A DNA stretch of 64,000 nucleotides from Candidatus Latescibacterota bacterium (GTDB lineage: Bacteria; Latescibacterota; UBA2968; GCA-2709665): the NCBI GenBank assembly GCA_963662665.2, contig CAXXJS010000061.1, positions 128,001 to 192,000 on the forward strand. The letters run 5' to 3'. Position 1 is the stretch's first letter, and each line of letters opens with the position of its first letter. The notes beneath the pieces are model-generated. The model was given only the letters and a program-made list of their open reading frames with translations. It ran no database searches and was not told the DNA's origin. Shown one piece after another: positions 3,494-49,520 of this stretch. The position numbers and the translations under genes were made by a program.

Positions 3494-4585
3494 ATGGAAA
3501 CCATTCGCCCCATTCGCGAGTCGGAACTCGAGGAACTCCTCGACCTGCTCTGCCTCGTGCACAACCCCAAAGGCCGCGAGCGGTACCGGCGCTACATCAA
3601 AGGCGATCCGACGTGGCGTACGTCACAGACACCGGTTGTCGTGGTCGACGGCCGGATCGTGTCGACGCTTCGGATCTGGGACCGCCGGGTCCACGTTGGC
3701 GCCACGCCCTTCCGCATGGGCGGTATCGGCGGTGTCACCACCCATCCGGACTACCGGAAACGCGGCATCGCCACGCGGCTGATGGCGCACGCGGCGGAGT
3801 ACATGCGTGACGATGGATTCGACCTGGGGCTGCTGTTCTCAGCGATCCCGGCACGCTTTTACCTGCGTCTCGGGTGGTGCTGCGTGCCGCTGACGGGTTT
3901 TCGGGCCGAGTTGCGCAGTGCTCCGAAGCGCGAGCGGTCGGCACGCGAAGTTCTGCCTTTCGATGAGACTCGCGACCTGGAGGAGACGGTCGCGCTCTAC
4001 CAGCGGCACAACGCCGGCCGCAGCGGCAGCATGTTGCGTCCGCGTCCCTACTGGGACTACGGTCCCTCCCGCGTGCGGGGCGTGCTGCCCGCGACCGTCG
4101 TCCGCAGCCCGGATGGTCTGTGTGGATACATCAACTGGGAAGCGAACGGCGACGGAGTCGAGGTGTACGAGGTTGCATACGACAACGGCACGTCCCTGGA
4201 TGCTCTTGTGCAGTGCGTGCTTGACACGTGCGCGGATGCCGGTGTGACGCGAATAAGCGGAGCGATCCCCCACAGCCATCCCTTTGTGGACGCGCTGGTC
4301 GCAGCCGCTGACGCGGACCTGGAAATCACGGGCGACAACTCGATGATGGTGCTGCCCTTCGAGCTCGGTTCGCTCGTCGGCAGGGCCGTGCCTGAAGCCG
4401 CGGAATTGGCTGGCAGGCTGCCGGTCGATCTGATGTGCCGGCTCCTCTTTGGCGAGACGTCCGGCAGCGATCTGGGATCCATCCTTCGCGCCCGCGGCAT
4501 CTCACTGTCGACCGAAGAAGCCCGCCAACTCGACGAGGGGTTCCCCCGCCGCGAGGTCATCTTCTGGGCGCCGGACCATTTCTGA
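3494..4585 (+). CDS. Eis-like multi-domain GNAT acetyltransferase
   Basis: MGGIGGVTTHPDYRKRGIATRLM, FYLRLGW, then a second GNAT-like domain. Confidence 0.88.
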   Translation: METIRPIRESELEELLDLLCLVHNPKGRERYRRYIKGDPTWRTSQTPVVVVDGRIVSTLRIWDRRVHVGATPFRMGGIGGVTTHPDYRKRGIATRLMAHAAEYMRDDGFDLGLLFSAIPARFYLRLGWCCVPLTGFRAELRSAPKRERSAREVLPFDETRDLEETVALYQRHNAGRSGSMLRPRPYWDYGPSRVRGVLPATVVRSPDGLCGYINWEANGDGVEVYEVAYDNGTSLDALVQCVLDTCADAGVTRISGAIPHSHPFVDALVAAADADLEITGDNSMMVLPFELGSLVGRAVPEAAELAGRLPVDLMCRLLFGETSGSDLGSILRARGISLSTEEARQLDEGFPRREVIFWAPDHF

Positions 4586-4676
4586 TGCCCGGGTGGCCAT
4601 CTCGCCAAAGACACCGGACCGGGTCATCCGATACGAGCGGCGCTCGTTGTGAATAGGATCAATTGCCATCACACCT

Positions 4677-4815
4677 GTTCAAAATCGGCTGCGTTCTTGG
4701 GGACAGCAGTGGCCCAAAGAAGGTGACCTGTATTGGCGCCACGTAACGACTTTCAAGAAAACCAGGTACTTATGCGTTCAAAATCGTCATTTCTAAATTA
4801 TCTTGGACAGCAGTG
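4677..4815. repeat. Two direct copies of GTTCAAAATCG...GGACAGCAGTG, possible IS-end relics
   Basis: GTTCAAAATCG at 4677 and 4776; GGACAGCAGTG at 4701 and 4805. Confidence 0.45.
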
Positions 4816-4861
4816 AATTGGCATATTGAATCAAGATTCGATTGACATGTGGGGGATTCTG

Positions 4862-5209
4862 ATGATTGTCAGATCCGAGGCTGCAAAAGAGGTCACATTC
4901 GAAGGTCTTAAGGTTCGAGACTATACCCCATGTCACGACCACAGTTCTTCATTGGCCACGGTCGAGGTACCACCGGGGATGCAGCACCGGAAAGCGCGGA
5001 CAACGCGTTCAGACAAATACTACTTTGTGATGGATGGAATCGTACGTTTCACTTTGGGTTCCAGCGAACACCAACTCGAAGCGGGAGACTTCTGTTTGGT
5101 GCCGAAAGGAATCCACTTCAAGTACAGCAATGACACTTCAGTGAAGGCGGTCTTGCTGTTGGTCCATACCCCCAGCTTTGATCTGTCGGCGGAGGTTTTC
5201 GAGGATTGA
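4862..5209 (+). CDS. Cupin domain protein
   Basis: SLATVEVPPG...H, YYFVMDG, LEAGDFCLVPKGIHF. Confidence 0.85.
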   Translation: MIVRSEAAKEVTFEGLKVRDYTPCHDHSSSLATVEVPPGMQHRKARTTRSDKYYFVMDGIVRFTLGSSEHQLEAGDFCLVPKGIHFKYSNDTSVKAVLLLVHTPSFDLSAEVFED

Positions 5210-5418
5210 ACCCCTTGTCCATACCGAACTTTTTTGTGGCATCATCCGCTGCGATTCTGCATTGGTATTCCTTTTGGATGGCATATAGAGTGAAACGCTG
5301 CGTTACATTCGTATGTGCAGCATAGTCGCATCCGCGCATCATTTTCAATCTGCTTCGCAGCTTTGCAACAGGAGGCTCTGTAATCGAAGTGCGGGCCGGG
5401 CCGGACGGGAGTACAGGT

Positions 5419-6351
5419 GTGGAAATCTTCGACCATGGACGTGTATCCCGATCCGACGCGGTCTTGCGGAGGATTCTTGACGCCGTTAACCGGACGGAAG
5501 AGATCACTTCGATCGCCAGCGACATCGAGCTATTCGTCCAGGAATACGGATTGATCGCGGCCCATCTCCGAGGGTTGCACCTGGAGACCGGGCTTGTCGT
5601 CATTGTCAAGGTCGGCACGAGCGCGCGCGAGAACTTCTGGTGCCGGGAACTCCATCGCCATTGCCCCGACCTGGTCCCACGAGTATATGCCGTGGGATCC
5701 CGCATTGGGGATATCGACGTCCACTGGATCGCATTGGAAGCCATCCCGTATGGGCCTCTCGGGGATTCCTGGAACGGCAGGGAGTTCGAGTTGATGCTCG
5801 ACGCGGGGATTCGGTTCTATCGACACGCGAGGCTGATCGATGACCCCACGCTGGGCGTCACGACGCGGGGCGAAGTTTTCGGCTGGCTTGAGGGCGCAGT
5901 CCGGCAGCGTTGTCCGGGCGCGGTCGATATGCTTCTATCGAGACTCGACGACCATTGGGAGTTTATCCTCGCGAAGTGTGGATCCGAAACCTGCTTCGAA
6001 GACTTCCACCTGTGCAACGGATTGATGAGAGATCCGCCTCCCGACGGTGACCGCGCGGTCCTGATCGATATCCATCCGAATTGCCGCCCGTGGATCCTGG
6101 ATCCGGCATATCTCCAGGTCCTGAATTCTGGAGACAGGAATCGGCCCGGTAACAGGGACCTCGTCCCCAGAATGGCCGCCAAACGCCGCGACGCGGAACT
6201 CGCGAGCCTTGAGGGATCCGACCTGGATGCCGCAACGAAAATTGCCCTGGGTTGGATGGCCGCCCGTCAGTGGCGACCTGACCTGGTGGATTCGCAACCC
6301 CGTTACCGCGACGCATTTCAAGAGTTCATTGACAGCGCCGCAGAAGTGTGA
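5419..6351 (+). CDS. Aminoglycoside/choline phosphotransferase-like (APH fold) protein
   Basis: VIVKVG lysine, FEDFHLCN catalytic-loop-like motif, VLID; start codon uncertain (5389 or 5419). Confidence 0.65.
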   Translation: MEIFDHGRVSRSDAVLRRILDAVNRTEEITSIASDIELFVQEYGLIAAHLRGLHLETGLVVIVKVGTSARENFWCRELHRHCPDLVPRVYAVGSRIGDIDVHWIALEAIPYGPLGDSWNGREFELMLDAGIRFYRHARLIDDPTLGVTTRGEVFGWLEGAVRQRCPGAVDMLLSRLDDHWEFILAKCGSETCFEDFHLCNGLMRDPPPDGDRAVLIDIHPNCRPWILDPAYLQVLNSGDRNRPGNRDLVPRMAAKRRDAELASLEGSDLDAATKIALGWMAARQWRPDLVDSQPRYRDAFQEFIDSAAEV

Positions 6352-34803: not shown

Positions 34804-34965
34804 AGTCCTGGACAGGAACCGATCAATATGTCTTCCGGTTTTTTTCCGGGGCGGGCTAACGCCTGACGTTGTTGCCTGCCAGGATGACAAAACGGCCGCA
34901 CATGTGAGCCTGCGAAAGCGCCCGCAACAAGCGATGTCAAACCTCTTGTTCTCGTTCGAGGGATA

Positions 34966-35775
34966 TTGCCAATGGGTCCACGTCCGCACAGTGTAGAGTG
35001 GTACAGGAGACTCGCGAGATCTCAGCAGGGCTATCCTTCCACATCACAAGACGTGGAGGTTGGAGCGTACGGTGGGGAAGTCTTCTACCTGGATTTTGTG
35101 AAGGCGCATATGCGCCCTGACGAGGACGTGATGGACGTCGGCTGCGGACATGGTGAAGACGCACTTCGGCTCGCGCAGCTCTGTCGAAACTTTCTGGGGT
35201 ACGATCCGGCTCCCTCATTTATCGAACTTGCGCGGGAGAATGCCCGGGCCGCCGGGCTGGAAAATGTCACGTTCCTCGTACACGATTCAAGCGCGAAGGC
35301 AAATCAGGGAAGGGTGAGAATACCGGTCGGGGACGAGTCTCTTGACTTGATCATCTCTCGGCGGGGGCCTGTACACTGGATCGCAGACGCGAAACGGGTT
35401 GTAAGAAGCGGAGGCGTTCTTATTCAGCTCTGCATGTCGGGTCGACTTCCCGTTCCCGAATGGAATGTTGAGCTGCCGGAACCCTTCGATCGTGAAAACC
35501 ACCACCTTCCGGACATGATGCTGGATACGGTTAAGGGGGCCTTGGCGGATGCAGGGATTGAACTGCACAGTTTTTGGACTTTCGACGTGCCTGCCCTGCT
35601 GGACGGCCCCGGAAGGTTATACAAGGCGCTTGCTTTCGGACGGCCCCCAGCTGATATTCCGTCCTATTCCGAAGTGGAAGAAGCTCTGAAGGCCATTTTC
35701 TTCCGCCACAGAAAACATGGAAAGCTTGATATTCGGCAGCGTCGGCTGCTTTGGAAAGCAGTCATTGACAAATAG
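34966..35775 (+). CDS. Class I SAM-dependent methyltransferase
   Basis: VMDVGCGHG, LDLIISRRGP; the start may be the ATG at 34972. Confidence 0.9.
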   Translation: MPMGPRPHSVEWYRRLARSQQGYPSTSQDVEVGAYGGEVFYLDFVKAHMRPDEDVMDVGCGHGEDALRLAQLCRNFLGYDPAPSFIELARENARAAGLENVTFLVHDSSAKANQGRVRIPVGDESLDLIISRRGPVHWIADAKRVVRSGGVLIQLCMSGRLPVPEWNVELPEPFDRENHHLPDMMLDTVKGALADAGIELHSFWTFDVPALLDGPGRLYKALAFGRPPADIPSYSEVEEALKAIFFRHRKHGKLDIRQRRLLWKAVIDK

Positions 35776-40404: not shown

Positions 40405-41481
40405 GTGAAGATCGAGAACATCGAAGTCATCCAGATCGAGACGCCGCGCTTCTACGGGCAGATTTCCGGTCATGTGCTGATCCGGATGCACGTAGACGAC
40501 GGTCCCTTCGGCCTCGGCGAGGCGTCGGACAGCCGGTGCGCCGACGTGTCCGCCCTGGCGCGGCAACTCAACGAGCAGTTGAAGGGCCGCGACGCCCGCC
40601 GCATCGTTGAGATCAACGACTTCGCCCGCGCACGGAACTGGAACAGCACGGTCACAAACCAGCACGTGGCCAGTGCGATCGACCTCGCGCTCTACGACCT
40701 CAACGGCAAGGTCCAGGGGGTACCTGTCTACCAGATGCTCGGAGGCAAGGTGCGCGAAACGCTCTACTGCTGCTATCCGATTTTCGGATGGCAGGTGACG
40801 GAGGATTTCGAGCGCGCCGGATCCTACCTGCAGCGCCTGGTGGATCTCGGCCACCATCTGTTTCGCTACTACGTCTCCGGCGACGTGGACCTCGACGATC
40901 GCTTTCTGACGGAGATGAAGTCCAGGCACGGCGAACGTATCAGGCTCAAGTCCATCGACTTCTCGGGCCGCTTCCGCGACTGGCAGGAGGCGCTGCGCTA
41001 CGGCGACAGGCTGAGGCGCCACGACCCGTTTCACTTCGAGCAGCCGACGTATGAGATGCGGTCCAGTGCGCAGTTCACGCAGCGCGTCGACCTGCCGGTC
41101 ACCTGGCATATCGGCTCTCTGCAGCAGGCTTTGGAGGCGGCCGAGCGCGGCGCCTGCACGGCCTTCAACGTGGCCTGCGTGTCCGGCGGGCCGACTCACG
41201 TCAAGCGAATCCTGGCGGTGGGGGAGGCCGCCGGCATGCCCTGCCTGATCGGCACCGACCAGGAGTCCACACTGGGCATGAGCGCCCAGGTGGCGGTGGG
41301 CATCACGTCGCCACAGGTCCAATTGCCGTGCGATCCCATGGGACCGCTGCTCTACACGGCGTCGCCGGCCAGGGAGCGCGTACGTGCCGAAGGCAGCTAC
41401 CTGACCCCGCTCGAGGGCCCCGGTCTGGGCGTGGAACTGGATGAAGACAAACTTGCAGCACTAACCGTAGAGAGGGCTTGA
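40405..41481 (+). CDS. Mandelate racemase/muconate lactonizing enzyme (enolase superfamily)
   Basis: GLGE, SAIDLALYDLNGK..GVPVYQMLGGKVR, FEQP, GPGLGVELDED. Confidence 0.92.
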   Translation: MKIENIEVIQIETPRFYGQISGHVLIRMHVDDGPFGLGEASDSRCADVSALARQLNEQLKGRDARRIVEINDFARARNWNSTVTNQHVASAIDLALYDLNGKVQGVPVYQMLGGKVRETLYCCYPIFGWQVTEDFERAGSYLQRLVDLGHHLFRYYVSGDVDLDDRFLTEMKSRHGERIRLKSIDFSGRFRDWQEALRYGDRLRRHDPFHFEQPTYEMRSSAQFTQRVDLPVTWHIGSLQQALEAAERGACTAFNVACVSGGPTHVKRILAVGEAAGMPCLIGTDQESTLGMSAQVAVGITSPQVQLPCDPMGPLLYTASPARERVRAEGSYLTPLEGPGLGVELDEDKLAALTVERA

Positions 41482-41484
41482 GCG

Positions 41485-42252
41485 ATGGAGGATCACCTGA
41501 AGATCAGCGAAGACCAGATCGCGCACTTTGAACGAAACGGGTTCTTCCTCATTCCGAACCCCCTTGGGGCGAAGGGTGTGCGGGAGGTCGACAACCGGCA
41601 GCAGGAAGTGGAACCGGAGTGGGCGCGCGCTGAGTTCCCCGCGGGGTGTAACCGGTTCGCATGCCTGTTTCTGATGCTCGGTGAACCTGTGCTGCAAATG
41701 GTGGAACGCCCCGATCTGATCAAAGCCGCACGGCGGATCCTGGGCGTTGAGAAAGTGCACGTGGGTGCGTGCGGTATCGGCGACGCCTCGAAAGTGCAAC
41801 GGGGCGGTCCCCGTCAGGTCGAGTGGCACGCGGACGGCAGTCCGGAAGTCCGGCAGGTGTCCTTCCGCACCGCCCTGGACCGTCACGACGCCAGCAACGG
41901 ACCGCTGCGGGTGCTGCCCGGCAGCCAGCACCGGCCGCCGGAGGAGGTCAAGGCGGAACTGCTGCAACTCGAACTGGCCACCGGGACCCACGACGAGATG
42001 CCCGCGCAGTTCTTCGCCCGCCATCCCCAGGAGGTGGAGGTCATCCTCGACCCACGGTGGACCCTGGTGTGGACGCCCTCCTGCTGGCACGCCACCGGGT
42101 TGAAGACGGCCGCCGGACCGCGGCGCGCCATGGGCTGGAACTACTACCCGGCGAGCGGCCGCAACCGCGATCTGGAGGCGCTCAAACACGTCCATCCCGA
42201 CTGGCCGGACTGGACGGAGACGCGCCAGCGTCTCTGGGGCCTCGTCGACTGA
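41485..42252 (+). CDS. Phytanoyl-CoA dioxygenase (PhyH) family Fe/2OG enzyme
   Basis: FERNGF, WHAD, NGPLRVLPGSQH, WHA. Confidence 0.88.
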   Translation: MEDHLKISEDQIAHFERNGFFLIPNPLGAKGVREVDNRQQEVEPEWARAEFPAGCNRFACLFLMLGEPVLQMVERPDLIKAARRILGVEKVHVGACGIGDASKVQRGGPRQVEWHADGSPEVRQVSFRTALDRHDASNGPLRVLPGSQHRPPEEVKAELLQLELATGTHDEMPAQFFARHPQEVEVILDPRWTLVWTPSCWHATGLKTAAGPRRAMGWNYYPASGRNRDLEALKHVHPDWPDWTETRQRLWGLVD

Positions 42253-42264
42253 CGGTCGTGCCCT

Positions 42265-42747
42265 ATGCTGATTTATATCAACGGTTCGATCAATTCCGGC
42301 AAATCGACCGTCGGTCGCCTGCTGGCGGAAAACCTGTCCGGGACCGTCCACATCGAGGTCGACGAACTGCGGCACTTCGCCCGCTGTCTGAGTCTGGCGG
42401 ATGCGTGCCCTTACTGCGTCGAGGATGCGGCAACTTTGGCGCGGGCATGGCTATCGCGCGGGTTTAACGTTGTGGTTACGTGGCCGATTTCACATCGCGA
42501 CTACGCGGTCTTCGAGCGTGAAGCGGCAGTCGCCGGCGTTTCCATACACGCGTTTACGCTCCGGCCGCCCCTCGAAGTAGCCACTTCCGATCGCGGCGGC
42601 CGGCAACTGACCGAACGGGAACGGTCCCGCATCAGGGAGCAATACCGAATGCCCCATATCGATCCGGGAATCGGAACGGTGATCGACAACAGCCTTCAGA
42701 CGCCGGCCGAGACTCTTGCGGCCATCAACTCCGTGCTGGGAATATAA
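42265..42747 (+). CDS. P-loop nucleotide kinase-like protein (AAA_33/TmrB-like)
   Basis: INGSINSGKSTV Walker A, IDNS. Confidence 0.8.
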   Translation: MLIYINGSINSGKSTVGRLLAENLSGTVHIEVDELRHFARCLSLADACPYCVEDAATLARAWLSRGFNVVVTWPISHRDYAVFEREAAVAGVSIHAFTLRPPLEVATSDRGGRQLTERERSRIREQYRMPHIDPGIGTVIDNSLQTPAETLAAINSVLGI

Positions 42748-42799
42748 AGCCAATGTTCAAAGTACCAGATAGTTCTGCTCAGACCGCCGCCCTGGACAA

Positions 42800-43258
42800 A
42801 TGAAAAAGCCTCCCGTCCATAAGGCGTTCGCGCTGATTATCAGGCATGACGCGGATGAGAGATGCGAGTTGCTGGTCCTTGAGCTCAAATCCGTCGGTTA
42901 CGAATTCTATCGTCTCCCGGGTGGAAATATCGAAGGCGATGAAACGCCGCTCGAGGCCGCGCGGCGCGAGACCCTCGAAGAGTCGGGCATCGAGAATCTG
43001 CAGTTCGTCCGCAAGATCGGGACAACCCGATACTTCAAACCCTACATCCAGTCGGACGTGGAACGGACGGACTTCCTGTTCAAACCCGATTCTAATTTGC
43101 CTGACGAATGGGAGCACATTGGAACCGTGGGCCCTGAAGCAGGTGTTGTATTTGCATATTCATGGATCTCCGCCGATTTCATTCCAAGAGTGGATCCGGA
43201 ACTGCGGACCTTCCTGACGCGGGATCGCGTTCCGGAACTGTTCCCGGAGCAGCCGTAG
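42800..43258 (+). CDS. NUDIX hydrolase
   Basis: PGGNIEGDETPLEAARRETLEESG. Confidence 0.9.
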   Translation: MKKPPVHKAFALIIRHDADERCELLVLELKSVGYEFYRLPGGNIEGDETPLEAARRETLEESGIENLQFVRKIGTTRYFKPYIQSDVERTDFLFKPDSNLPDEWEHIGTVGPEAGVVFAYSWISADFIPRVDPELRTFLTRDRVPELFPEQP

Positions 43259-43306
43259 CCTGGTCTGGCGCGCGTATCGCTGACAGACATCGCCAGGCTC
43301 ATAGCG

Positions 43307-43493
43307 CCCCCTCCCCCTTTTCTTAAGGTGAGGGGCCGGAGGGAGAGGTCTCGAAAAAGCGGGGAGAGGGTAGAGGTGAGTCGGTAGAAGATATCCTTGC
43401 TCGATAGGTTATTCCTCGTCACCTCCGGCACGAGCAGAATCCTCACATGGCAGGTAATCTCTCCCCGCTTCCGTCTCACGTGACTCACCCGGT
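43307..43493. repeat. Family C hairpin plus ~150-bp fold-back element D, copy 1
   Basis: 43341-43493 is colinear with 44322-44471; AAGCGGGGAGAG/CTCTCCCCGCTT 12-bp arms. Confidence 0.75.
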
Positions 43494-43534
43494 GGCCGAT
43501 GGGTGGTCTTCTTTTGCTTCCATTCCTGATTTTC

Positions 43535-44230
43535 ATGCCTATGTCCAGCGAATTTGATTTCGGGGGAGCCGTTCCCGCCTGGGGCCGAAGCGCTACTGAA
43601 TACGAGGCTTTTTTCGCGTTGTCCGACGTCCCGTCATCCGCGCGCGTCCTGAATTGCGGCGGCGGGTGTTCGTCATTCGCGGCCGAATGGGGCGGGAAGG
43701 GGCGACTCGTTGTCGCCGTCGATCCCGTGTACAGTTCGTCCGGCAGGGACCTGGAGTCCGCTTTCAAAGTCACAGCCGCACGAATGCTCGCCGGGTTGAA
43801 AAAGACGCGCGAACGGTTTCTCTGGGACCGCTATGACAGCCCCGAAACGTGCCTCCACGTGCGCCGTGACATCCTCGCAACCTTCCTCCCCGACTTCCGG
43901 TCCGGAACCGCGAGCGGCCGTTACGTTGCGGGAAAACTGCCTGACCTTCCCTTCAGGTCGAAATCCTTCGATCTGGTCCTGTGTTCCCATCTGCTGTTTC
44001 TGTACTCCGCGGAATTCAACCTTGAAATGCATCTCTCCTGCCTTCGGGAACTGCTTCGAGTGGGGCGAGAGGTCCGGGTATTTCCGTTGATGGACATGGC
44101 GGGTAAATCATCGAGGCATCTGGACCGCACTATACGATCCATGCAGAATTGCGCAGACGTCGAGGTGGTAGCGGTCCCATTCGAGTTCCGGCGCGGCGAC
44201 ACCGACATGCTGCGGATAGCCCAAAGCTGA
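43535..44230 (+). CDS. SAM-dependent methyltransferase-like protein
   Basis: WGRSATEYEAFF, VLNCGGGCSSF, VAVDP, LPF..FDLVLCSHLLFLYS, EVRVFPL. Confidence 0.85.
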   Translation: MPMSSEFDFGGAVPAWGRSATEYEAFFALSDVPSSARVLNCGGGCSSFAAEWGGKGRLVVAVDPVYSSSGRDLESAFKVTAARMLAGLKKTRERFLWDRYDSPETCLHVRRDILATFLPDFRSGTASGRYVAGKLPDLPFRSKSFDLVLCSHLLFLYSAEFNLEMHLSCLRELLRVGREVRVFPLMDMAGKSSRHLDRTIRSMQNCADVEVVAVPFEFRRGDTDMLRIAQS

Positions 44231-44267
44231 CCGCTCCGCTCTGCGCGTGACCGGACTTCCTGGCTTC

Positions 44268-44471
44268 CTCCCCCTCTCCCTGTGGGAGAGGGGGTTGGGG
44301 GGTGAGGGCCTTGGGGCTGGGGGGAGAGGTCGCGAAAAGGCGGTAAGAAGGTAGAGGGAAGCCGGTAGAAGAAATCCCTGCCCGCTATTTTATTCCTTCT
44401 TGCCTCCGGCACGAAACGAAACCTCACAGTGCAGGAAATCTCTACCCTCTCCCGTCTTGCGTCTTCCCGGT
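44268..44471. repeat. Family C hairpin plus fold-back element D, copy 2
   Basis: CCCCCTCTCCC-TGT-GGGAGAGGGGG, then element D in the same orientation as copy 1. Confidence 0.75.
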
Positions 44472-44638
44472 TTTAAGGACCCCGCCGGAGGCAGGGAATA
44501 TGGGGAGAAGTGGATGTTGCATTTGATTTTCGACTTTGGTTCAAGCTGACGGCTGACCACTGTTAGCTAAGTCTGAGCGCCGGGGCGCGAGGTCGCCGGA
44601 GTGAGGACATCTTGCCGTTGTTGCGTTTGCCTCGTATA

Positions 44639-44666
44639 TAACGTTTATCGTTTAACGAATATCGTT
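44639..44666. repeat. Two 14-bp palindromic units (TAACG-N5-CGTT)
   Basis: TAACGTTTATCGTT TAACGAATATCGTT. Confidence 0.75.
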
Positions 44667-44820
44667 ATAATCTCGCGCGGCACTGTTCGCCAGGTCTTCG
44701 GAGTCGCGACGATAGACCTGCCCGTCCTGCCGTCGAGTGCACTTTTCGAATTGCCACGGATTTCATCTTTGTTCGTCTCCGCCGGATATGGCTTTCGACG
44801 AATCGTGTTTTTGCGATGTC

Positions 44821-44960
44821 TAACGTATATCGTTTAATGGATAACATTAAACGATATACGTTAAATGAATTCCGTTTAATGAAAAACATTTAACGTTTAA
44901 AATTTAATACTTTCTATTAAACGGAACTCATTTAACACTTGTCATTTAACGAAAAACGTT
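44821..44960. repeat. Tandem array of ten 14-bp palindromic units WAAYG-N5-CRTT, AT-rich
   Basis: Units start every 14 bp from 44821 to 44947 with no indel; followed by the perfect palindrome ATATAATATTATAT (44961-44974). Confidence 0.88.
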
Positions 44961-44986
44961 ATATAATATTATATGGCGTCGGTCCC

Positions 44987-45025
44987 GCCGGCTCCGCCTG
45001 TGATGTTGAGATCGCATTTGATCGA
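44987..45025 (+). pseudogene. Possible 3' remnant of a higB (plasmid-killer type) toxin gene
   Basis: GSACDVEIAFDR resembles the GxAYDVEIVDYH C-terminus, directly upstream of higA. Confidence 0.45.
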
Positions 45026-45040
45026 TCCGGAGAAATAACC

Positions 45041-45346
45041 ATGTCCACTGGAGAAACGGTTCCCGTTCATCCCGGGAGAATATTGCAGGAACAGTTTCTC
45101 GAGCCGATGGATCTCAGCCAGAATCAATTGGCGCTGTCCATCGGGGTGCCGCCGCGGCGCATCAACGAAATCGTCCTTGGCAAACGCGGCATCACGGCCG
45201 ATACGGCGCTGAGACTCGCCCGGTACTTCTACACCTCCCCCCGATTCTGGATGAACATCCAGACGAACTACGAACTGGACGTGGCCGAGGAGACCCTTGC
45301 GGACCGGCTGGACAGGGAAGTGCGTCCGCATATTCGCGGCGGTTAG
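45041..45346 (+). CDS. higA: HigA/VapI family addiction-module antitoxin (orphan)
   Basis: PVHPGRIL..FLEP..LSQNQLA...RRINEIVLGKRGITADTALRLARYF.TSPRFWMNIQ. Confidence 0.93.
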   Translation: MSTGETVPVHPGRILQEQFLEPMDLSQNQLALSIGVPPRRINEIVLGKRGITADTALRLARYFYTSPRFWMNIQTNYELDVAEETLADRLDREVRPHIRGG

Positions 45347-45423
45347 ACCGCGGTTACCAATTGTCACATCTGATATCGGGACGAAACTTTCGCAGGATTG
45401 GACTCAAGAATGTCCGGACTTCG

Positions 45424-45634
45424 CGACGGGACGGCGTCGAATACCTACCACGGCTATGAGGGAGCGGCATACGATCTGCGCCGCCATCATCTGGCCTGGC
45501 GCCTGGACTGGGTCCTGTTTCGCGGACCGGGTCTGTAGGTCGACGTGGAAAAGTCCGACATCGTCCGAAGCCACCGGGGTCCGCTCTACCCCAGCGACCA
45601 CTATCCGGTCGTTTCGGACTTGAACTGGAAGTGA
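45424..45634 (+). pseudogene. 3' fragment of an endonuclease/exonuclease/phosphatase family gene
   Basis: NTYHGY...WRLDWVLFR..*..LYPSDHYPVVSDL; internal TAG, 5' part missing. Confidence 0.7.
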
Positions 45635-45995
45635 CGGGAGGCGGCTGGTCAAGTGATGTTCGAAGGGTATACACCCAATAAAACTGAACTCTCCCCCAGG
45701 GTATTCGATAACAAGCAATCATGTAACGCGTTTCTTGCAAAGGATTTAGAAAAGGAGGTGGGGGAGCTGAAATCATGAACTATCACGTTGAATCTCAACG
45801 CCAATACTCCGTTCGTCCGAATCCGAACGAGGGGCAAAGTCATCCATTTCGATGAAGCAAGCCGGATTCGCGCGCTCGATGGTTGTAAACCGAACCGTGC
45901 AGTTCGTTTTGCAGGATTTCTCGTATCGTCAACACAAAAACGGAAATACGTCATACGTTTCAAGTACGAAATGCCACAAATCGATTGGGGGGAAC

Positions 45996-46466
45996 ATGTC
46001 TGCGAATGAGATCGTATATAAGGAGAATCCGAGCGGCGTCAATTGGCAGGCCCTTGCCGAAGTCTATCGGCGCATTCCTCTGGGGAAGCTGGATTCCGGA
46101 AAACTCCGTCGCGCGTATACCAACAGTGAGATCTGTTGTTTCGCCTTCAGTGGTGAGGCGCTTGTGGGGGGTGGAAGGGTGATTTCGGACGACGAAGCGC
46201 CCGCGACCGTCTGCGAGCTGGTTGTAGCCCCGGAATACCAGCGCCGGGGCATCGGAAGGGCTATCTTGAAATCGATCCTCAGGAAACTCGACGTTCCCAG
46301 GGTGATCCTGGCGTGTATGCATGGTCAGCAGGAATTTTTCAGAAAAGAAGGATTTCTCGGGCACAAGTCGGTAATGGCGCTGTACGCCAATTCGCAATGG
46401 TTCGTGGACAGCGGCAATCTGGAATCGAAAGATTCCGCCAATGCAGCTGCGGCATATTCTGATTGA
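45996..46466 (+). CDS. GNAT N-acetyltransferase
   Basis: LVGGGRVISD, LVVAPEYQRRGIGRAIL, FFRKEGF. Confidence 0.88.
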   Translation: MSANEIVYKENPSGVNWQALAEVYRRIPLGKLDSGKLRRAYTNSEICCFAFSGEALVGGGRVISDDEAPATVCELVVAPEYQRRGIGRAILKSILRKLDVPRVILACMHGQQEFFRKEGFLGHKSVMALYANSQWFVDSGNLESKDSANAAAAYSD

Positions 46467-46512
46467 CGCGTCGTCGATTCGTGACATTCAACCCGGGCCG
46501 AACATCGAGCCT

Positions 46513-47154
46513 ATGGAAATGGTACGATCCAGGTTCCGCGTCGGGGATGCCATTCTTTACCGCGAACTCGACGAGTACGGCCGGCTTATCGACTTGAAGC
46601 CCGTCACCGTGGTCGAGGATACCGACGCCCGGACTGTGCTATGGCTTCCGTTAGGGACGCCGACCAAAAAGCCTGAAGCATCTCTCGACATTCGGGGCAA
46701 GCCGCGGGACTGGATGAACACCAACTGGAAATTGTCGGATGCGATCTGGCGGTGGGCGGACCTTCTGATCATCGTCCGGTCCGGCGAAAACCGCGCAACG
46801 TGGGTGCGGCGGTCTGCCGATGGCGTGTTTCAGGGCTGGTACGTCAATCTTCAGAGCAAGTTGATACGCACGCGGCTGGGCTTCGATTACCGGGATTACC
46901 AGCTGGATATCGTCGTAGAACCGGACCGAAGCTGGTCCTGGAAGGACCGCAACGAACTCGATCTCGCGGTCAGCCAGGGTCGAATATCACCAAAAGAGGC
47001 AAGGGCGGTGTGCAACGAAGGAAGACGCGCCATCGAAGAAATCGAGGGTCCCCGCGGGGTGTATATCGAGGGGTGGGAGAACTGGCGTCCGGATGCAACG
47101 CTGCCGCGACCGCACATGCTAGCGGATTGGGACGACCTGTCTATGTACGGTTAG
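46513..47154 (+). CDS. DUF402 (FomD-like) family protein
   Basis: PVTVVEDT, GWYVNLQ, DYQLDIVVEPD..WKD..EL. Confidence 0.8.
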   Translation: MEMVRSRFRVGDAILYRELDEYGRLIDLKPVTVVEDTDARTVLWLPLGTPTKKPEASLDIRGKPRDWMNTNWKLSDAIWRWADLLIIVRSGENRATWVRRSADGVFQGWYVNLQSKLIRTRLGFDYRDYQLDIVVEPDRSWSWKDRNELDLAVSQGRISPKEARAVCNEGRRAIEEIEGPRGVYIEGWENWRPDATLPRPHMLADWDDLSMYG

Positions 47155-47178
47155 ACCGGGTCTCGGAAGCAGCCTTGC

Positions 47179-47357
47179 GACGTCTTTTCAGTTCACGTCC
47201 AGTGACCTGGTGTATCCTGGTAATCAGCCGTCAAATCACCCTTATCCACTTGCCTATATTCGATTTTAGTCCCGGAAAAATAACGAATCAAGGTTAAATC
47301 GCCTTTATCTACTTGCATATATTCGGTCTTACTTCCCCGAAGCATTACGAATCAGGG
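47179..47357. mobile_element. MITE family A, copy 4: left-truncated, with two right ends in tandem
   Basis: First end CGAATCAAGG at 47293 is followed by TTAAATCGCC..., the element's own internal sequence; second end CGAATCAGGG at 47357. Confidence 0.8.
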
Positions 47358-47447
47358 TCAGGCCACGCAAATGGAAACTTCCGGGACTCCCGGGGCGTTA
47401 AAGTACGAGTTGGGAGTGTCATGAAAAACCGGAATCAGGAGACCAAA

Positions 47448-49520
47448 ATGATGCGTCGTATTGGCGCGCTGTTGCCGGCGCTTTTAAGCGTGTCCGTGCT
47501 GCTTCAATGCAGCGAACCCGAAGAGACCCCGCCGCCGCTGGCCAGATATACGGGCGACCTTGCCGAGTTGGTTTCGCGAGGCAAGCTCAGGGCGATCGTC
47601 CCACTTGAGCCGATCGCCTATCTGCCGCGGCATGGACAGCACGTGACGATCGCCTACGACATCGCGAGGGAGCTTTCGGAGGCGCTCAAATTGGAGCCGG
47701 TTCTTGTAAGGGTCGGGGATTTCTCCGAAATCATGGGCAAGTTGCTCGAGGGCGAGGGCGACATCGCGGTGGCCAGCCTGACCATAACACCCGAACGCCA
47801 GAAGCAAGCTGTGTTTTCGGTCCCGTATATGTTCGTGGACGAATACCTGGTCACAAAAACAGGCGGCAAGCTTCCACAGAAGGTCGATGACCTTGCGGGT
47901 ATGGAAATCAGCGTGCGGCGCTCGAGCTCGTACTATCAGACACTTGTCAACCTCCGGCGGCAGGTGCCGTCCCTGCGAATCCGGGCCGCACCGGAAACCC
48001 TGAACATCGAAGCCCTGCTGGACGGCGTCGCCAGCGGGGAATACGAAGCCACGTTGTCCGATTCGCATCTGTGGCATGCCCTGTCCAGTTATTATGACAG
48101 TCTGACTACGTCCCTCGTGCTGGCGAAGGGCCGGCCGATCGCGGTGATGATGCGGCCGGAGGATACCGAACTTAAAACCAGAGTGGATGAGTTTCTACTA
48201 GCCCGGCACTTTACTCGAGAGCGGCAGCACGAATTCACCGACGATCTGCCCGGGCTGATCGAACGGGGCCGCTTGCGGATGATCACACGCAACAACGCAT
48301 TGACCTATTTCATTCACCGCGGCCTGCAGGTGGGATTCGAGTACGAACTGATGAAGAAATTCGCCTCGGAACACGGCCTGCGCCTGGAGATTGTTATTCC
48401 CAAATCCCACGCCGAACTCCTGTCGTATCTGAACGAGGGCAAGGGGGACGTGGTGGCAGCCGCGATGACCATAACCCCAGAACGCCAGAAGGCTGCGGAC
48501 TTTACGAGGCCGTATAACGACGTGGACGAGGTGGTCGTTGTACGTGAAGACGACGGTTCAGTCAACACGATTCGTGACCTGGCCGGACGGACGGTCCACG
48601 TACGTGCGAGTTCTTCCTTCTATTCAACGCTCATGGCGATCCGGGATTCCCTGCCCGGTCTTGAGATTGTCGCGCTGCCGGACGACATGGAGACCGAAGA
48701 GATACTTGCAGGGGTCGAGTCCGGACTCTATGACCTCACGCTTGCGGATTCCAATCTGCTCGACGTGGAACGCGCCTACGGCATGCGCCTCAAGGCCGCA
48801 TTCAGCATCAAGTCAACCACACTGGGGTGGGCCGTCCGCAAGGGTAATTCCTCACTGTTGGCGTCGTTGAATGAGTACATCCGGCGCGAAAAAGGCGGAC
48901 TCTACTTCAATATGATGAAGAAGCGGTATTTCGAGAACCCTCGAGGAATCGCGAGGGCAAAGGATTCGACGCGGGTCGGTATAAGCGGACAGCTCTCGCC
49001 GTACGACGGCATTGCAAAAAAATACGCGCAGCGATACAGCCAGGATTGGCGCCTGATTACCGCGCAGATGTACCAGGAATCCAAATTCAACCCGGAAGCC
49101 GTCAGCTGGGTCGGCGCCAGGGGATTGATGCAGGTGATGCCCAAAACAGGGCTGCAGTTGGGTTTTGAAAACCTGGAGGACCCGGACGAGGGCGTACACG
49201 CAGGGACCAAGTACATGCATCAGCTATTGGGGCGTTTCGACCATGAGATCCCGATACAGTCGCGGATTCACTTTGCTCTGGCGTCCTATAACGTCGGGTA
49301 CGGTCATCTGCTGGATGCCCGCCGCCTGGCGCGCGAAAAGGGATGGGACGCCGACGTCTGGTTCGGCAACGTGGAGCAGGCCATGCGCCTGCTTTCGCAA
49401 CCGGCCTATTACGAACGGGCGCGCTACGGATACTGCCGAGGCGGCCAGCCCGTGCACTACGTAGAGAAAATACAGAGTCTGTACGACGCTTACGTGGAGG
49501 TACTGGACACCGCCCAATGA
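47448..49520 (+). CDS. mltF: MltF-like lytic transglycosylase with two tandem periplasmic-binding domains
   Basis: LLQC lipobox-like motif; two SBP_bac_3 repeats (GEGDIAVASLTITPER / GKGDVVAAAMTITPER); SLT motifs YQESKF, GLMQ, ASYNVG, ARYGYCRG. Confidence 0.9.
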   Translation: MMRRIGALLPALLSVSVLLQCSEPEETPPPLARYTGDLAELVSRGKLRAIVPLEPIAYLPRHGQHVTIAYDIARELSEALKLEPVLVRVGDFSEIMGKLLEGEGDIAVASLTITPERQKQAVFSVPYMFVDEYLVTKTGGKLPQKVDDLAGMEISVRRSSSYYQTLVNLRRQVPSLRIRAAPETLNIEALLDGVASGEYEATLSDSHLWHALSSYYDSLTTSLVLAKGRPIAVMMRPEDTELKTRVDEFLLARHFTRERQHEFTDDLPGLIERGRLRMITRNNALTYFIHRGLQVGFEYELMKKFASEHGLRLEIVIPKSHAELLSYLNEGKGDVVAAAMTITPERQKAADFTRPYNDVDEVVVVREDDGSVNTIRDLAGRTVHVRASSSFYSTLMAIRDSLPGLEIVALPDDMETEEILAGVESGLYDLTLADSNLLDVERAYGMRLKAAFSIKSTTLGWAVRKGNSSLLASLNEYIRREKGGLYFNMMKKRYFENPRGIARAKDSTRVGISGQLSPYDGIAKKYAQRYSQDWRLITAQMYQESKFNPEAVSWVGARGLMQVMPKTGLQLGFENLEDPDEGVHAGTKYMHQLLGRFDHEIPIQSRIHFALASYNVGYGHLLDARRLAREKGWDADVWFGNVEQAMRLLSQPAYYERARYGYCRGGQPVHYVEKIQSLYDAYVEVLDTAQ

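Follow-up and report, generated by a model that had tools for sequence, protein, structure and literature searches.

The operators of toxin-antitoxin systems normally comprise one to a few sites, and ParR/parC-type iteron centromeres, which are plasmid-borne and require a ParM or ParA motor, comprise about ten phased repeats to which many dimers are bound. Here we describe an array of ten phased 14-bp palindromic units upstream of higA, a gene for a HigA-family helix-turn-helix (HTH) antitoxin, in a 64,000-nucleotide stretch of a Candidatus Latescibacterota bacterium assembly (GCA_963662665.2, contig CAXXJS010000061.1, positions 128,001 to 192,000); this whole stretch is referred to as the window, and all coordinates given below are positions within it. 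The array is real and non-random, and with a probability that we put at roughly 0.6 it is a multiplied operator for the adjacent HigA, giving autorepression within a degenerated higBA module that lacks its toxin gene. It would then present a case in which an antitoxin operator expanded into a dozen phased boxes as the toxin gene was lost.

Among the closest known systems are those of GraA and PaHigA. The graTA operator bound by GraA of Pseudomonas putida contains TAACGAATAACGTTA, a 15-mer that is a perfect T-AACG-N5-CGTT-A sequence (PMC6393540, Table 1), and two GraA dimers cooperatively read TAAC half-sites from opposite faces of the DNA (PMC6393540). PaHigA of P. aeruginosa similarly uses TTAAC/GTTAA half-sites and two cooperative dimers (PMC6987408). 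The window HigA belongs to the same family over its full length and the array presents the same TAAC/GTTA half-sites; by our own reading of the printed operator, the window unit, TAAC-N7-GTTW, corresponds to the span of one dimer in the GraA and PaHigA complexes. In both systems more than one dimer binds cooperatively at the promoter of the module itself, as would be the case in the window. There are also differences. The two GraA or PaHigA dimers lie on opposite faces with an offset of about 7 bp, interleaved over some 28-33 bp, whereas the window has 10 + 2 sites placed head to tail every 14 bp and covering 140 + 28 bp; their promoter precedes a toxin gene and that of the window does not; and the recognition helix differs at three of the five residues named in those reports, the window having R39, L46 and E43 in place of P39, R46 and D43. 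Literature listings on HigA operators, on repeats and cooperativity in HigA binding, and on orphan antitoxins show no HigA operator array.

A more distant parallel is provided by the ω repressor of the ω-ε-ζ systems (pSM19035 family), dimers of which polymerise on heptad arrays overlapping promoters and which also controls the gene for the ParA-type δ (PMC4803016). The likeness consists of a regulator linked to a toxin-antitoxin system together with a contiguous array of short repeats that overlaps promoters. The ω protein is of the ribbon-helix-helix (RHH) type, without sequence relation to HigA, its heptads are 7 bp long and either non-palindromic or palindromic, and it acts in partition with the ParA-type δ; no such ParA-type partner was found among the nine main open reading frames (ORFs) of the region 40405-49520. 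Over the same ORFs, neither the motor nor the plasmid setting of the ParR/parC centromeres is seen at this locus.

A phased array of palindromic units

The main array occupies positions 44821-44960, which divide into ten 14-bp units with zero indels. Two further units of the same type lie upstream (see below), and all 12 begin with T or A followed by AA (positions 1-3) and end in TT (positions 13-14). G at position 5 and C at position 11 are found in 10 of the 12; position 4 alternates between C and T, and position 12 between G and A. The consensus WAAYG-N5-CRTT is fitted by seven of the ten main-array units, and the strict form AACG-N5-CGTT is present in units 1, 3, and 10, or five of the 12 units overall. 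Units 2, 4, 5, and 8 deviate from the strict box solely by C-to-T or G-to-A changes at CG, and units 6, 7, and 9 are degenerate, unit 9 being the one that holds the -35 hexamer of the downstream promoter.

The periodicity is well outside that of random sequence. Identity at a lag of 14 bp is 0.55 across 44821-44974, compared with 0.324 ± 0.038 in 5000 dinucleotide-preserving shuffles (z about 6), and that value was attained by none of the 5000, whether at lag 14 or at another lag between 5 and 45; shuffled sequence, in other words, does not give equal 14-bp periodicity. The pattern WAAYGN5CRTT matches 21 times in the window against an expectation of 3.5 ± 2.3, a count reached in none of 100 shuffles, and 18 of the 21 matches (nine units, with both strands counted) fall within 44639-44961. 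The cores differ from unit to unit, and because Tandem Repeats Finder reports just 1.9 copies (score 38) we regard the array as no slippage repeat. Near-identical copies with matching cores, as would characterise a slippage-type micro- or minisatellite, are not seen, and the array contrasts in this respect with the heptamer and 14-mer tandem repeats retrieved from other genomes.

Superimposed on the 14-bp phasing is a higher-order symmetry. Positions 44821-44839 and 44845-44863 form a perfect inverted repeat with 19-nt arms, 44861-44880 pairs with 44916-44935 at 19 of 20 positions, and 44961-44974 is a perfect 14-bp palindrome. Units 1 and 3 are mutually reverse-complementary, as are units 4 and 8, which suggests that the array may have arisen by duplication and inversion between palindromic boxes. 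The folding energy of the array as DNA is -34.9 kcal/mol (z -7.6).

Most of what the initial annotation reported of the array is borne out by these analyses: the ten exactly phased units, the WAA start and TT end of every unit (to which the two additional units also conform), the fit of most units to AAYG-N5-CRTT, the inverted repeat at 44821-44863, the 19/20 pairing, the terminal palindrome, and a nature other than slippage. Its statement that the central 5 bp are free is wrong, the cores being strongly constrained to A or T: of their 60 positions 8 are G or C, although the GC content of the window is 57%. At 22% GC the array is the lowest 150 bp of the window, the next lowest being 36.7%. 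No Rfam family was matched in a scan of the whole window, and a blastn search with 44600-45040 returned zero matches in plasmids and zero in phages.

The antitoxin gene and its promoter

The adjacent gene, higA (45041-45346, plus strand), is intact and full length, and its 101-aa product is assigned to the HigA-family HTH antitoxins by TIGR02607 (E 3e-30, 103.9 bits against a cut-off of 47.7). The protein aligns without gaps over its full length to the structures 3TRB (C. burnetii VapI), 6JPI, and 6F8S/6FIX, with E values of 1.4e-21 against PaHigA (6JPI) and about 4e-17 against GraA (6F8S/6FIX). It is presumably a dimer, since the homologues with solved structures are dimeric. The recognition helix is PPRRINEIVLGKR (residues 37-49). 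A GGAG ribosome-binding site, read from the sequence, is located 8 nt before the ATG (45029-45032, plus strand).

The consensus promoter scan called a single sigma-70-type promoter in 44200-45400, TTGTCA-17-TATAAT with 11 of 12 consensus matches, which we refer to as P2. Its -35 hexamer TTGTCA (44939-44944, plus strand) is inside unit 9, and its -10 hexamer TATAAT (44962-44967, plus strand) is inside the palindrome 44961-44974. The significance of P2 is in this placement, with the -35 in unit 9 and unit 10 (44947-44960), a perfect box by the motif scan, exactly filling the spacer between the hexamers and thereby occupying the classical repressor position. With unit 9 on the -35 and unit 10 in the spacer of P2, the promoter from which higA would be transcribed, bound HigA would be expected to shut off its own transcription.

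An extra strict AACG-N5-CGTT site (45054-45067) was found by the motif scan 13 nt into the higA coding sequence, out of the 14-bp register. The window offers no evidence for a HigA regulon: beyond the two blocks it has just three strict sites, and chance alone would place about 1.3 in the window as a whole. We note that one strict T-AACG-N5-CGTT, at 34857-34870, is intergenic, has a G+C-rich core, and is located about 100 bp upstream of an ORF at 34966-35775; it could be a stray HigA target or a chance occurrence.

Operators of plasmid-borne homologues

A tblastn search of 72,556 plasmids with the window HigA gave 782 records, and 19 of the best 40 were fetched (L122-L140), for a total of 50,637 bases; the encoded proteins are 41-56% identical to the window HigA in alignment. 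Strict AACG-N5-CGTT boxes are present in 8 of these 19 loci, with 11 sites altogether, and each of the 11 begins 24-46 bp before the start codon of higB and abuts a TATA-like -10. No strict box occurs elsewhere in the 50,637 bases, and in 300 Markov resamples the expected number was 0.62 ± 0.75, with a maximum of 4. The box-bearing loci (L122-L127, L136, and L138) derive from Picosynechococcus, Synechocystis (pSYSM), Rhodococcus, Nocardia, Rubrobacter, and Caballeronia. The repeat unit of the array is thus also the operator in the promoters of close homologues.

The distribution of the box follows that of the recognition helix. The sequence RRINEIVxGKR is found in all eight box-bearing loci and in the window HigA, and 10 of the 11 loci without a strict box are also without RR in the helix; in the eleventh, L130, higA directly adjoins thrC and lacks a separate promoter region. 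Because the box in the homologue promoters co-occurs with a matching helix, we infer that the window units are the cognate operator of this HigA clade and that the window HigA is equipped to read them. Variant palindromes are present in the other loci, for example AACG…TGTT in L139.

The closest plasmid higBA promoters thus share with the window both an identical box, T-AACG-N5-CGTT-A abutting a TATA-type -10, and an identical RRINEIVxGKR helix, and the last two units of the array together with the P2 -10 resemble one such promoter, as does the upstream pair described below. One box over the -35 and one in the spacer, the same arrangement as at P2, can be read by eye in L127 and L135. The plasmid homologues differ in that they have one or two boxes with cores of mixed composition and that higB is intact in all eight box-bearing loci. 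One box is present in five loci and two at 16-bp spacing in three, and there are never more. A trace of 14-bp spacing is seen in L123, which has a degenerate second unit at 14 bp with three of the four left half-site bases, and in L122 and L136, in which the right half-site alone is left of a 14-bp-spaced second unit.

An upstream operator pair and the search for higB

The initial annotation overlooked a pair of perfect T-AACG-N5-CGTT units, 14 bp apart, at 44639-44666, which was revealed by the motif and repeat scans and which we refer to as P1. It lies 182 bp (13 x 14) upstream of the main array and is in the same 14-bp register. A TATAAT (44666-44671, plus strand), read from the sequence and compared with the homologues, overlaps the last T of the second box, giving the CGT-TATAxx layout of the homologue higBA promoters, and the one- or two-box arrangement also matches theirs. 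In appearance, P1 looks like a complete promoter of the homologue type. The TATAAT is neither preceded by a good -35 nor, at present, followed by a gene, and P1 was not called by the consensus promoter scan. The P1 sequence at 44636-44669 shares 79% identity with that at the end of the array (44930-44963), for which reason P2 looks like a copy of P1.

Between P1 and the array is a G+C-rich spacer of 154 bp (44667-44820) in which no recognisable gene, motif, or higB remnant was found and no 14-bp motif is visible. We note that its length (11 x 14) equals that of the array plus terminal palindrome (44821-44974), which may be a coincidence.

A full-length higB, identified with a hidden Markov model (HMM) built from 10 HigB sequences, immediately precedes higA in 16 of the 19 plasmid loci, the 10 sequences being from 10 of those same 16 loci. 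No higB lies between promoter and higA in the window. No significant match in the window was returned by tblastn with six HigB proteins, the best hit (E 0.085) lying outside this interval, or by the HigB HMM (best E 2.4), and neither method found a significant higB remnant in 44231-45040. The top HMM match, a minus-strand ORF at 44668-44889 (E 2.4, 5.6 bits), was dismissed as an effect of sequence composition.

Two features suggest that higB was once present between P1 and higA. First, the distance from the P1 -10 to the higA ATG is 370 bp, as compared with 320-352 bp in homologues with a 282-bp higB. Second, the 14 codons directly upstream of higA and in frame with it (44975-45016, plus strand) may be what is left of the 3' end of higB (…DVEI…); when about 128,000 six-frame positions are scored against a 14-residue profile of 10 HigB C-termini, this peptide ranks 16th, and 15 of 18 bases in this region are identical to the same place in L129. 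The earlier description of the gene as an orphan higA accordingly stands insofar as no HigB is detectable in the 64-kb window, although the locus is better described as a higBA module minus its toxin.

Toxin-less or toxin-truncated higBA modules make up 3 of the 19 plasmid loci. In L134, from a Stanieria plasmid, higB has lost part of its 5' end and lies next to an IS1 transposase gene, and in L130 and L137 the HMM detects no higB; none of the three has an operator array.

Function and origin of the array

The feature is best explained as an unusual, enlarged variant of an ordinary toxin-antitoxin control region and not as a new class of element. From the sequence we infer that HigA binds the units, that several dimers do so simultaneously, that higA is tightly autorepressed, and that the module has a history of toxin loss. 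Each 14-bp unit, T-AACG-N5-CGTT-(A) or equivalently TAAC-N7-GTTA, would be the site of one HigA dimer, with the junction base common to neighbouring sites, such that dimers would tile the DNA every 14 bp. By our own calculation, successive dimers would be rotated by about 120 degrees, with three dimers per four turns and every third dimer on the same face (42 bp), and it is reasonable to suppose that many are bound in register. HigA on units 9 and 10 would block RNA polymerase at P2 and hence autorepress higA, and the upstream units would serve in cooperative loading or as a reservoir, with units 1, 3, and 10 predicted to be strong and the others weaker. In the history that we envisage, the old promoter-operator P1 survives, higB was lost, and the array with its own copy of the promoter came to stand in its place. 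Two signs of constraint favour this reading: none of the 12 units departs from AA and TT at its flanks, although the cores vary, and unit 9, which holds the -35 hexamer, is one of the three degenerate units. The initial annotation had proposed centromere-, operator-, and recombination-site-like DNA as analogies and had mentioned HigA as the only nearby DNA binder; of the analogies, the operator, with HigA as its binder, finds backing in the homologue promoters, the recognition helix, and the P2 spacer, and the others find none in the Pfam scan of the main ORFs of 40405-49520.

Several observations weigh against a multiplied HigA operator. The homologues carry just one or two boxes, compared with 12-13 in the window, and where they have two (Actinomycetota, Caballeronia, Leptolyngbya) the spacing is 16 bp and not 14 bp. 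Cores of A and T only have no counterpart in the homologue operators and are not explained by HigA binding. No more than five of the 12 units have the strict box, and the others deviate from it mostly by CG-to-TG or CG-to-CA changes, which could equally reflect mutational decay of a disused structure. The higB relic is weak, its rank corresponding to an estimated p of about 0.005 given its position, and the promoter scan finds one promoter where 0.8 would be expected by chance, a count that is without weight if taken alone.

Some of these same observations would be accounted for if the array were a decaying relic, generated by duplication and inversion of a palindromic operator during the breakdown of higBA and with its function limited to one or two promoter boxes, which we consider unlikely though deserving of attention. 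Loss of higB, as indicated by both tblastn and the HMM, is consistent with such a breakdown, as are a P1 lacking both a gene behind it and a good -35, variant units that look like products of CG transitions, and the reverse-complementary pairs 1/3 and 4/8, which are of the kind that inversion-duplication leaves; nor are toxin-less or truncated modules rare, given their frequency among the plasmid loci. It is more difficult to reconcile decay with flanks that have remained invariant despite the divergence of the cores, with an intact, full-length higA, and with a P2 that is near consensus, and a GC content of 22% within a 57% GC window would be hard to keep without constraint. If the array is just decay debris, it would still be a record of how palindromic operators amplify via duplication and inversion.

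A larger role is conceivable, albeit doubtful, in which a toxin-less, domesticated HigA polymerises on the array as a helical coat, with three dimers per four DNA turns, and turns it into a platform or switch for titration on the chromosome; the system would then have evolved from a toxin-antitoxin operator into an HTH counterpart of the ω heptads. Such a coat would set a sharp threshold of free HigA, and it could soak up or buffer antitoxins of the HigA type, for instance to counter addiction by incoming higBA plasmids. Were HigA to coat the array, the antitoxin would have been put to new use as a regulator in its own right, its operator being ultrasensitive or acting as a buffer, and the locus would offer a natural substrate for HTH dimers tiling DNA at a 14-bp pitch. 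The correspondence between RRINEIVxGKR and T-AACG-N5-CGTT-A would, if true, amount to a testable recognition code for a sizeable HigA clade.

That the array belongs to another DNA-binding protein, either a nucleoid-associated protein with a preference for A/T or an unrelated regulator, and that its likeness to HigA boxes is partly coincidental, seems improbable to us. The cores are A/T-constrained beyond those of homologue HigA operators, the array is the AT extreme of the window, and AAYG-N5-CRTT also fits unrelated sites, such as probable ARG boxes in one of the genomes discussed below. Yet the strict boxes match the clade operator at eight of eight half-site positions (AACG and CGTT), they are placed exactly at the promoter of a HigA with the matching recognition helix, and the window encodes no HigA paralogue; other DNA binders were screened for among the scanned ORFs only.

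Still less probable is a centromere or ω-like platform, on which HigA would polymerise into a higher-order complex for segregation or global control. It is true that a dimeric repressor associated with a toxin-antitoxin system would here have at least ten phased sites in an unbroken row, and that a geometry of three units per four turns would, by our calculation, wrap protein round the helix. The ω protein offers a precedent, in that it is described as polymerising on heptads and controlling the gene for the ParA-type δ (PMC4803016). The Pfam scan of the nine main ORFs of 40405-49520 nevertheless detected no ParA, ParM, or other nucleoside triphosphatase and no RHH, Rep, integrase, resolvase, or other recombinase, in agreement with the initial remark that no parA/parB, RHH, or recombinase gene is adjacent. 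The neighbours are metabolic, the blastn search gave no similarity to plasmids or phages, and the nearby binder has an HTH_3 domain and is not of the RHH type.

We give very little credence to an iteron block of a replication origin or an accessory-site block of a site-specific recombinase, for although the repeats are phased and lie in AT-rich, easily melted, and cruciform-prone DNA, there is no Rep, integrase, or resolvase among the neighbours scanned, the cumulative GC skew has no turn at the array, and the units are palindromes suited to a dimeric HTH protein and not directional iterons. The units were compared by eye with the Fur-box core, the CtrA site TTAA-N7-TTAA, and (in unit 2) a DnaA box, all of which were dropped as poor fits.

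Searches in other genomes

A pattern scan of genome contigs for three loose units gave at least 121 loci (L001-L121), and among the matches listed nearly all are (G/C)AACGTT heptamer microsatellites or true 14-bp tandem duplications. The DNA around the 121 listed loci extends up to 5 kb on each side for 80 of them (less at contig ends) and about 300 bp for the others; phmmer with the window HigA gave 0 matches in six-frame ORFs from all 121, and none of the listed matches is homologous to the window locus. The scan of these loci, at least 121 in number, neither supports nor refutes the existence of homologous arrays in other genomes. The locus L021 shares two unit sequences with the window, yet it is a contig-end tandem repeat beside an SCO1-like gene and was rejected.

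Among the matches listed, the (G/C)AACGTT heptamer arrays are common in assemblies of Verrucomicrobiota and Bacteroidota, often at contig ends and with several per genome; L018, L019, L046-L049, and L063, for example, are all from one Verrucomicrobiae metagenome-assembled genome. The heptamer unit is open in all three frames on one strand. A different case is presented by L044, in which three units (5001-5041) are located between an ArgR-like ORF (4453-4920) and an argininosuccinate-synthase-like ORF (5062-6276), both named by eye. These units are probably ARG boxes, from which it would follow that AAYG-N5-CRTT is not specific to HigA.

Gene neighbourhood

The array is contained in an 811-bp gene-free interval. 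Upstream is an S-adenosylmethionine-dependent methyltransferase-like ORF (43499-44230), and the other neighbours recognised by the Pfam scan are of the enolase-superfamily, PhyH, AAA_33, NUDIX, GNAT, DUF402/FomD-like, and MltF-like types. Searches of the entire 64-kb window revealed no second copy of a HigA-type gene. No credible Pfam family could be assigned to small ORFs flanking the array or to those in the 650 bp downstream of higA; in the interval from the higA stop to the likely GNAT start (45347-45995, about 650 bp) no credible family was identified in the ORFs tried, and a DUF1177 match in 45788-46009, at 15 bits against a cut-off of 25, was set aside as weak. The GC content dips to 0.47-0.49 at 45600-46000.

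The methyltransferase-like gene is bracketed by a 150-bp direct repeat, the two copies of which (43332-43481 and 44313-44462) are 79% identical. The repeat ends in inverted G/A-rich and C/T-rich runs (GGGAGAGG…CCTCTCCC), and RNAalifold applied to the two copies predicts 41 pairs on the plus strand, four of them with compensatory changes. It looks like an element of the repetitive extragenic palindrome (REP) or miniature inverted-repeat transposable element (MITE) kind, or like a structured RNA, and no Rfam family matches it. The 9-mer GGGAGAGGG occurs eight times in the window, compared with 0.88 expected occurrences.

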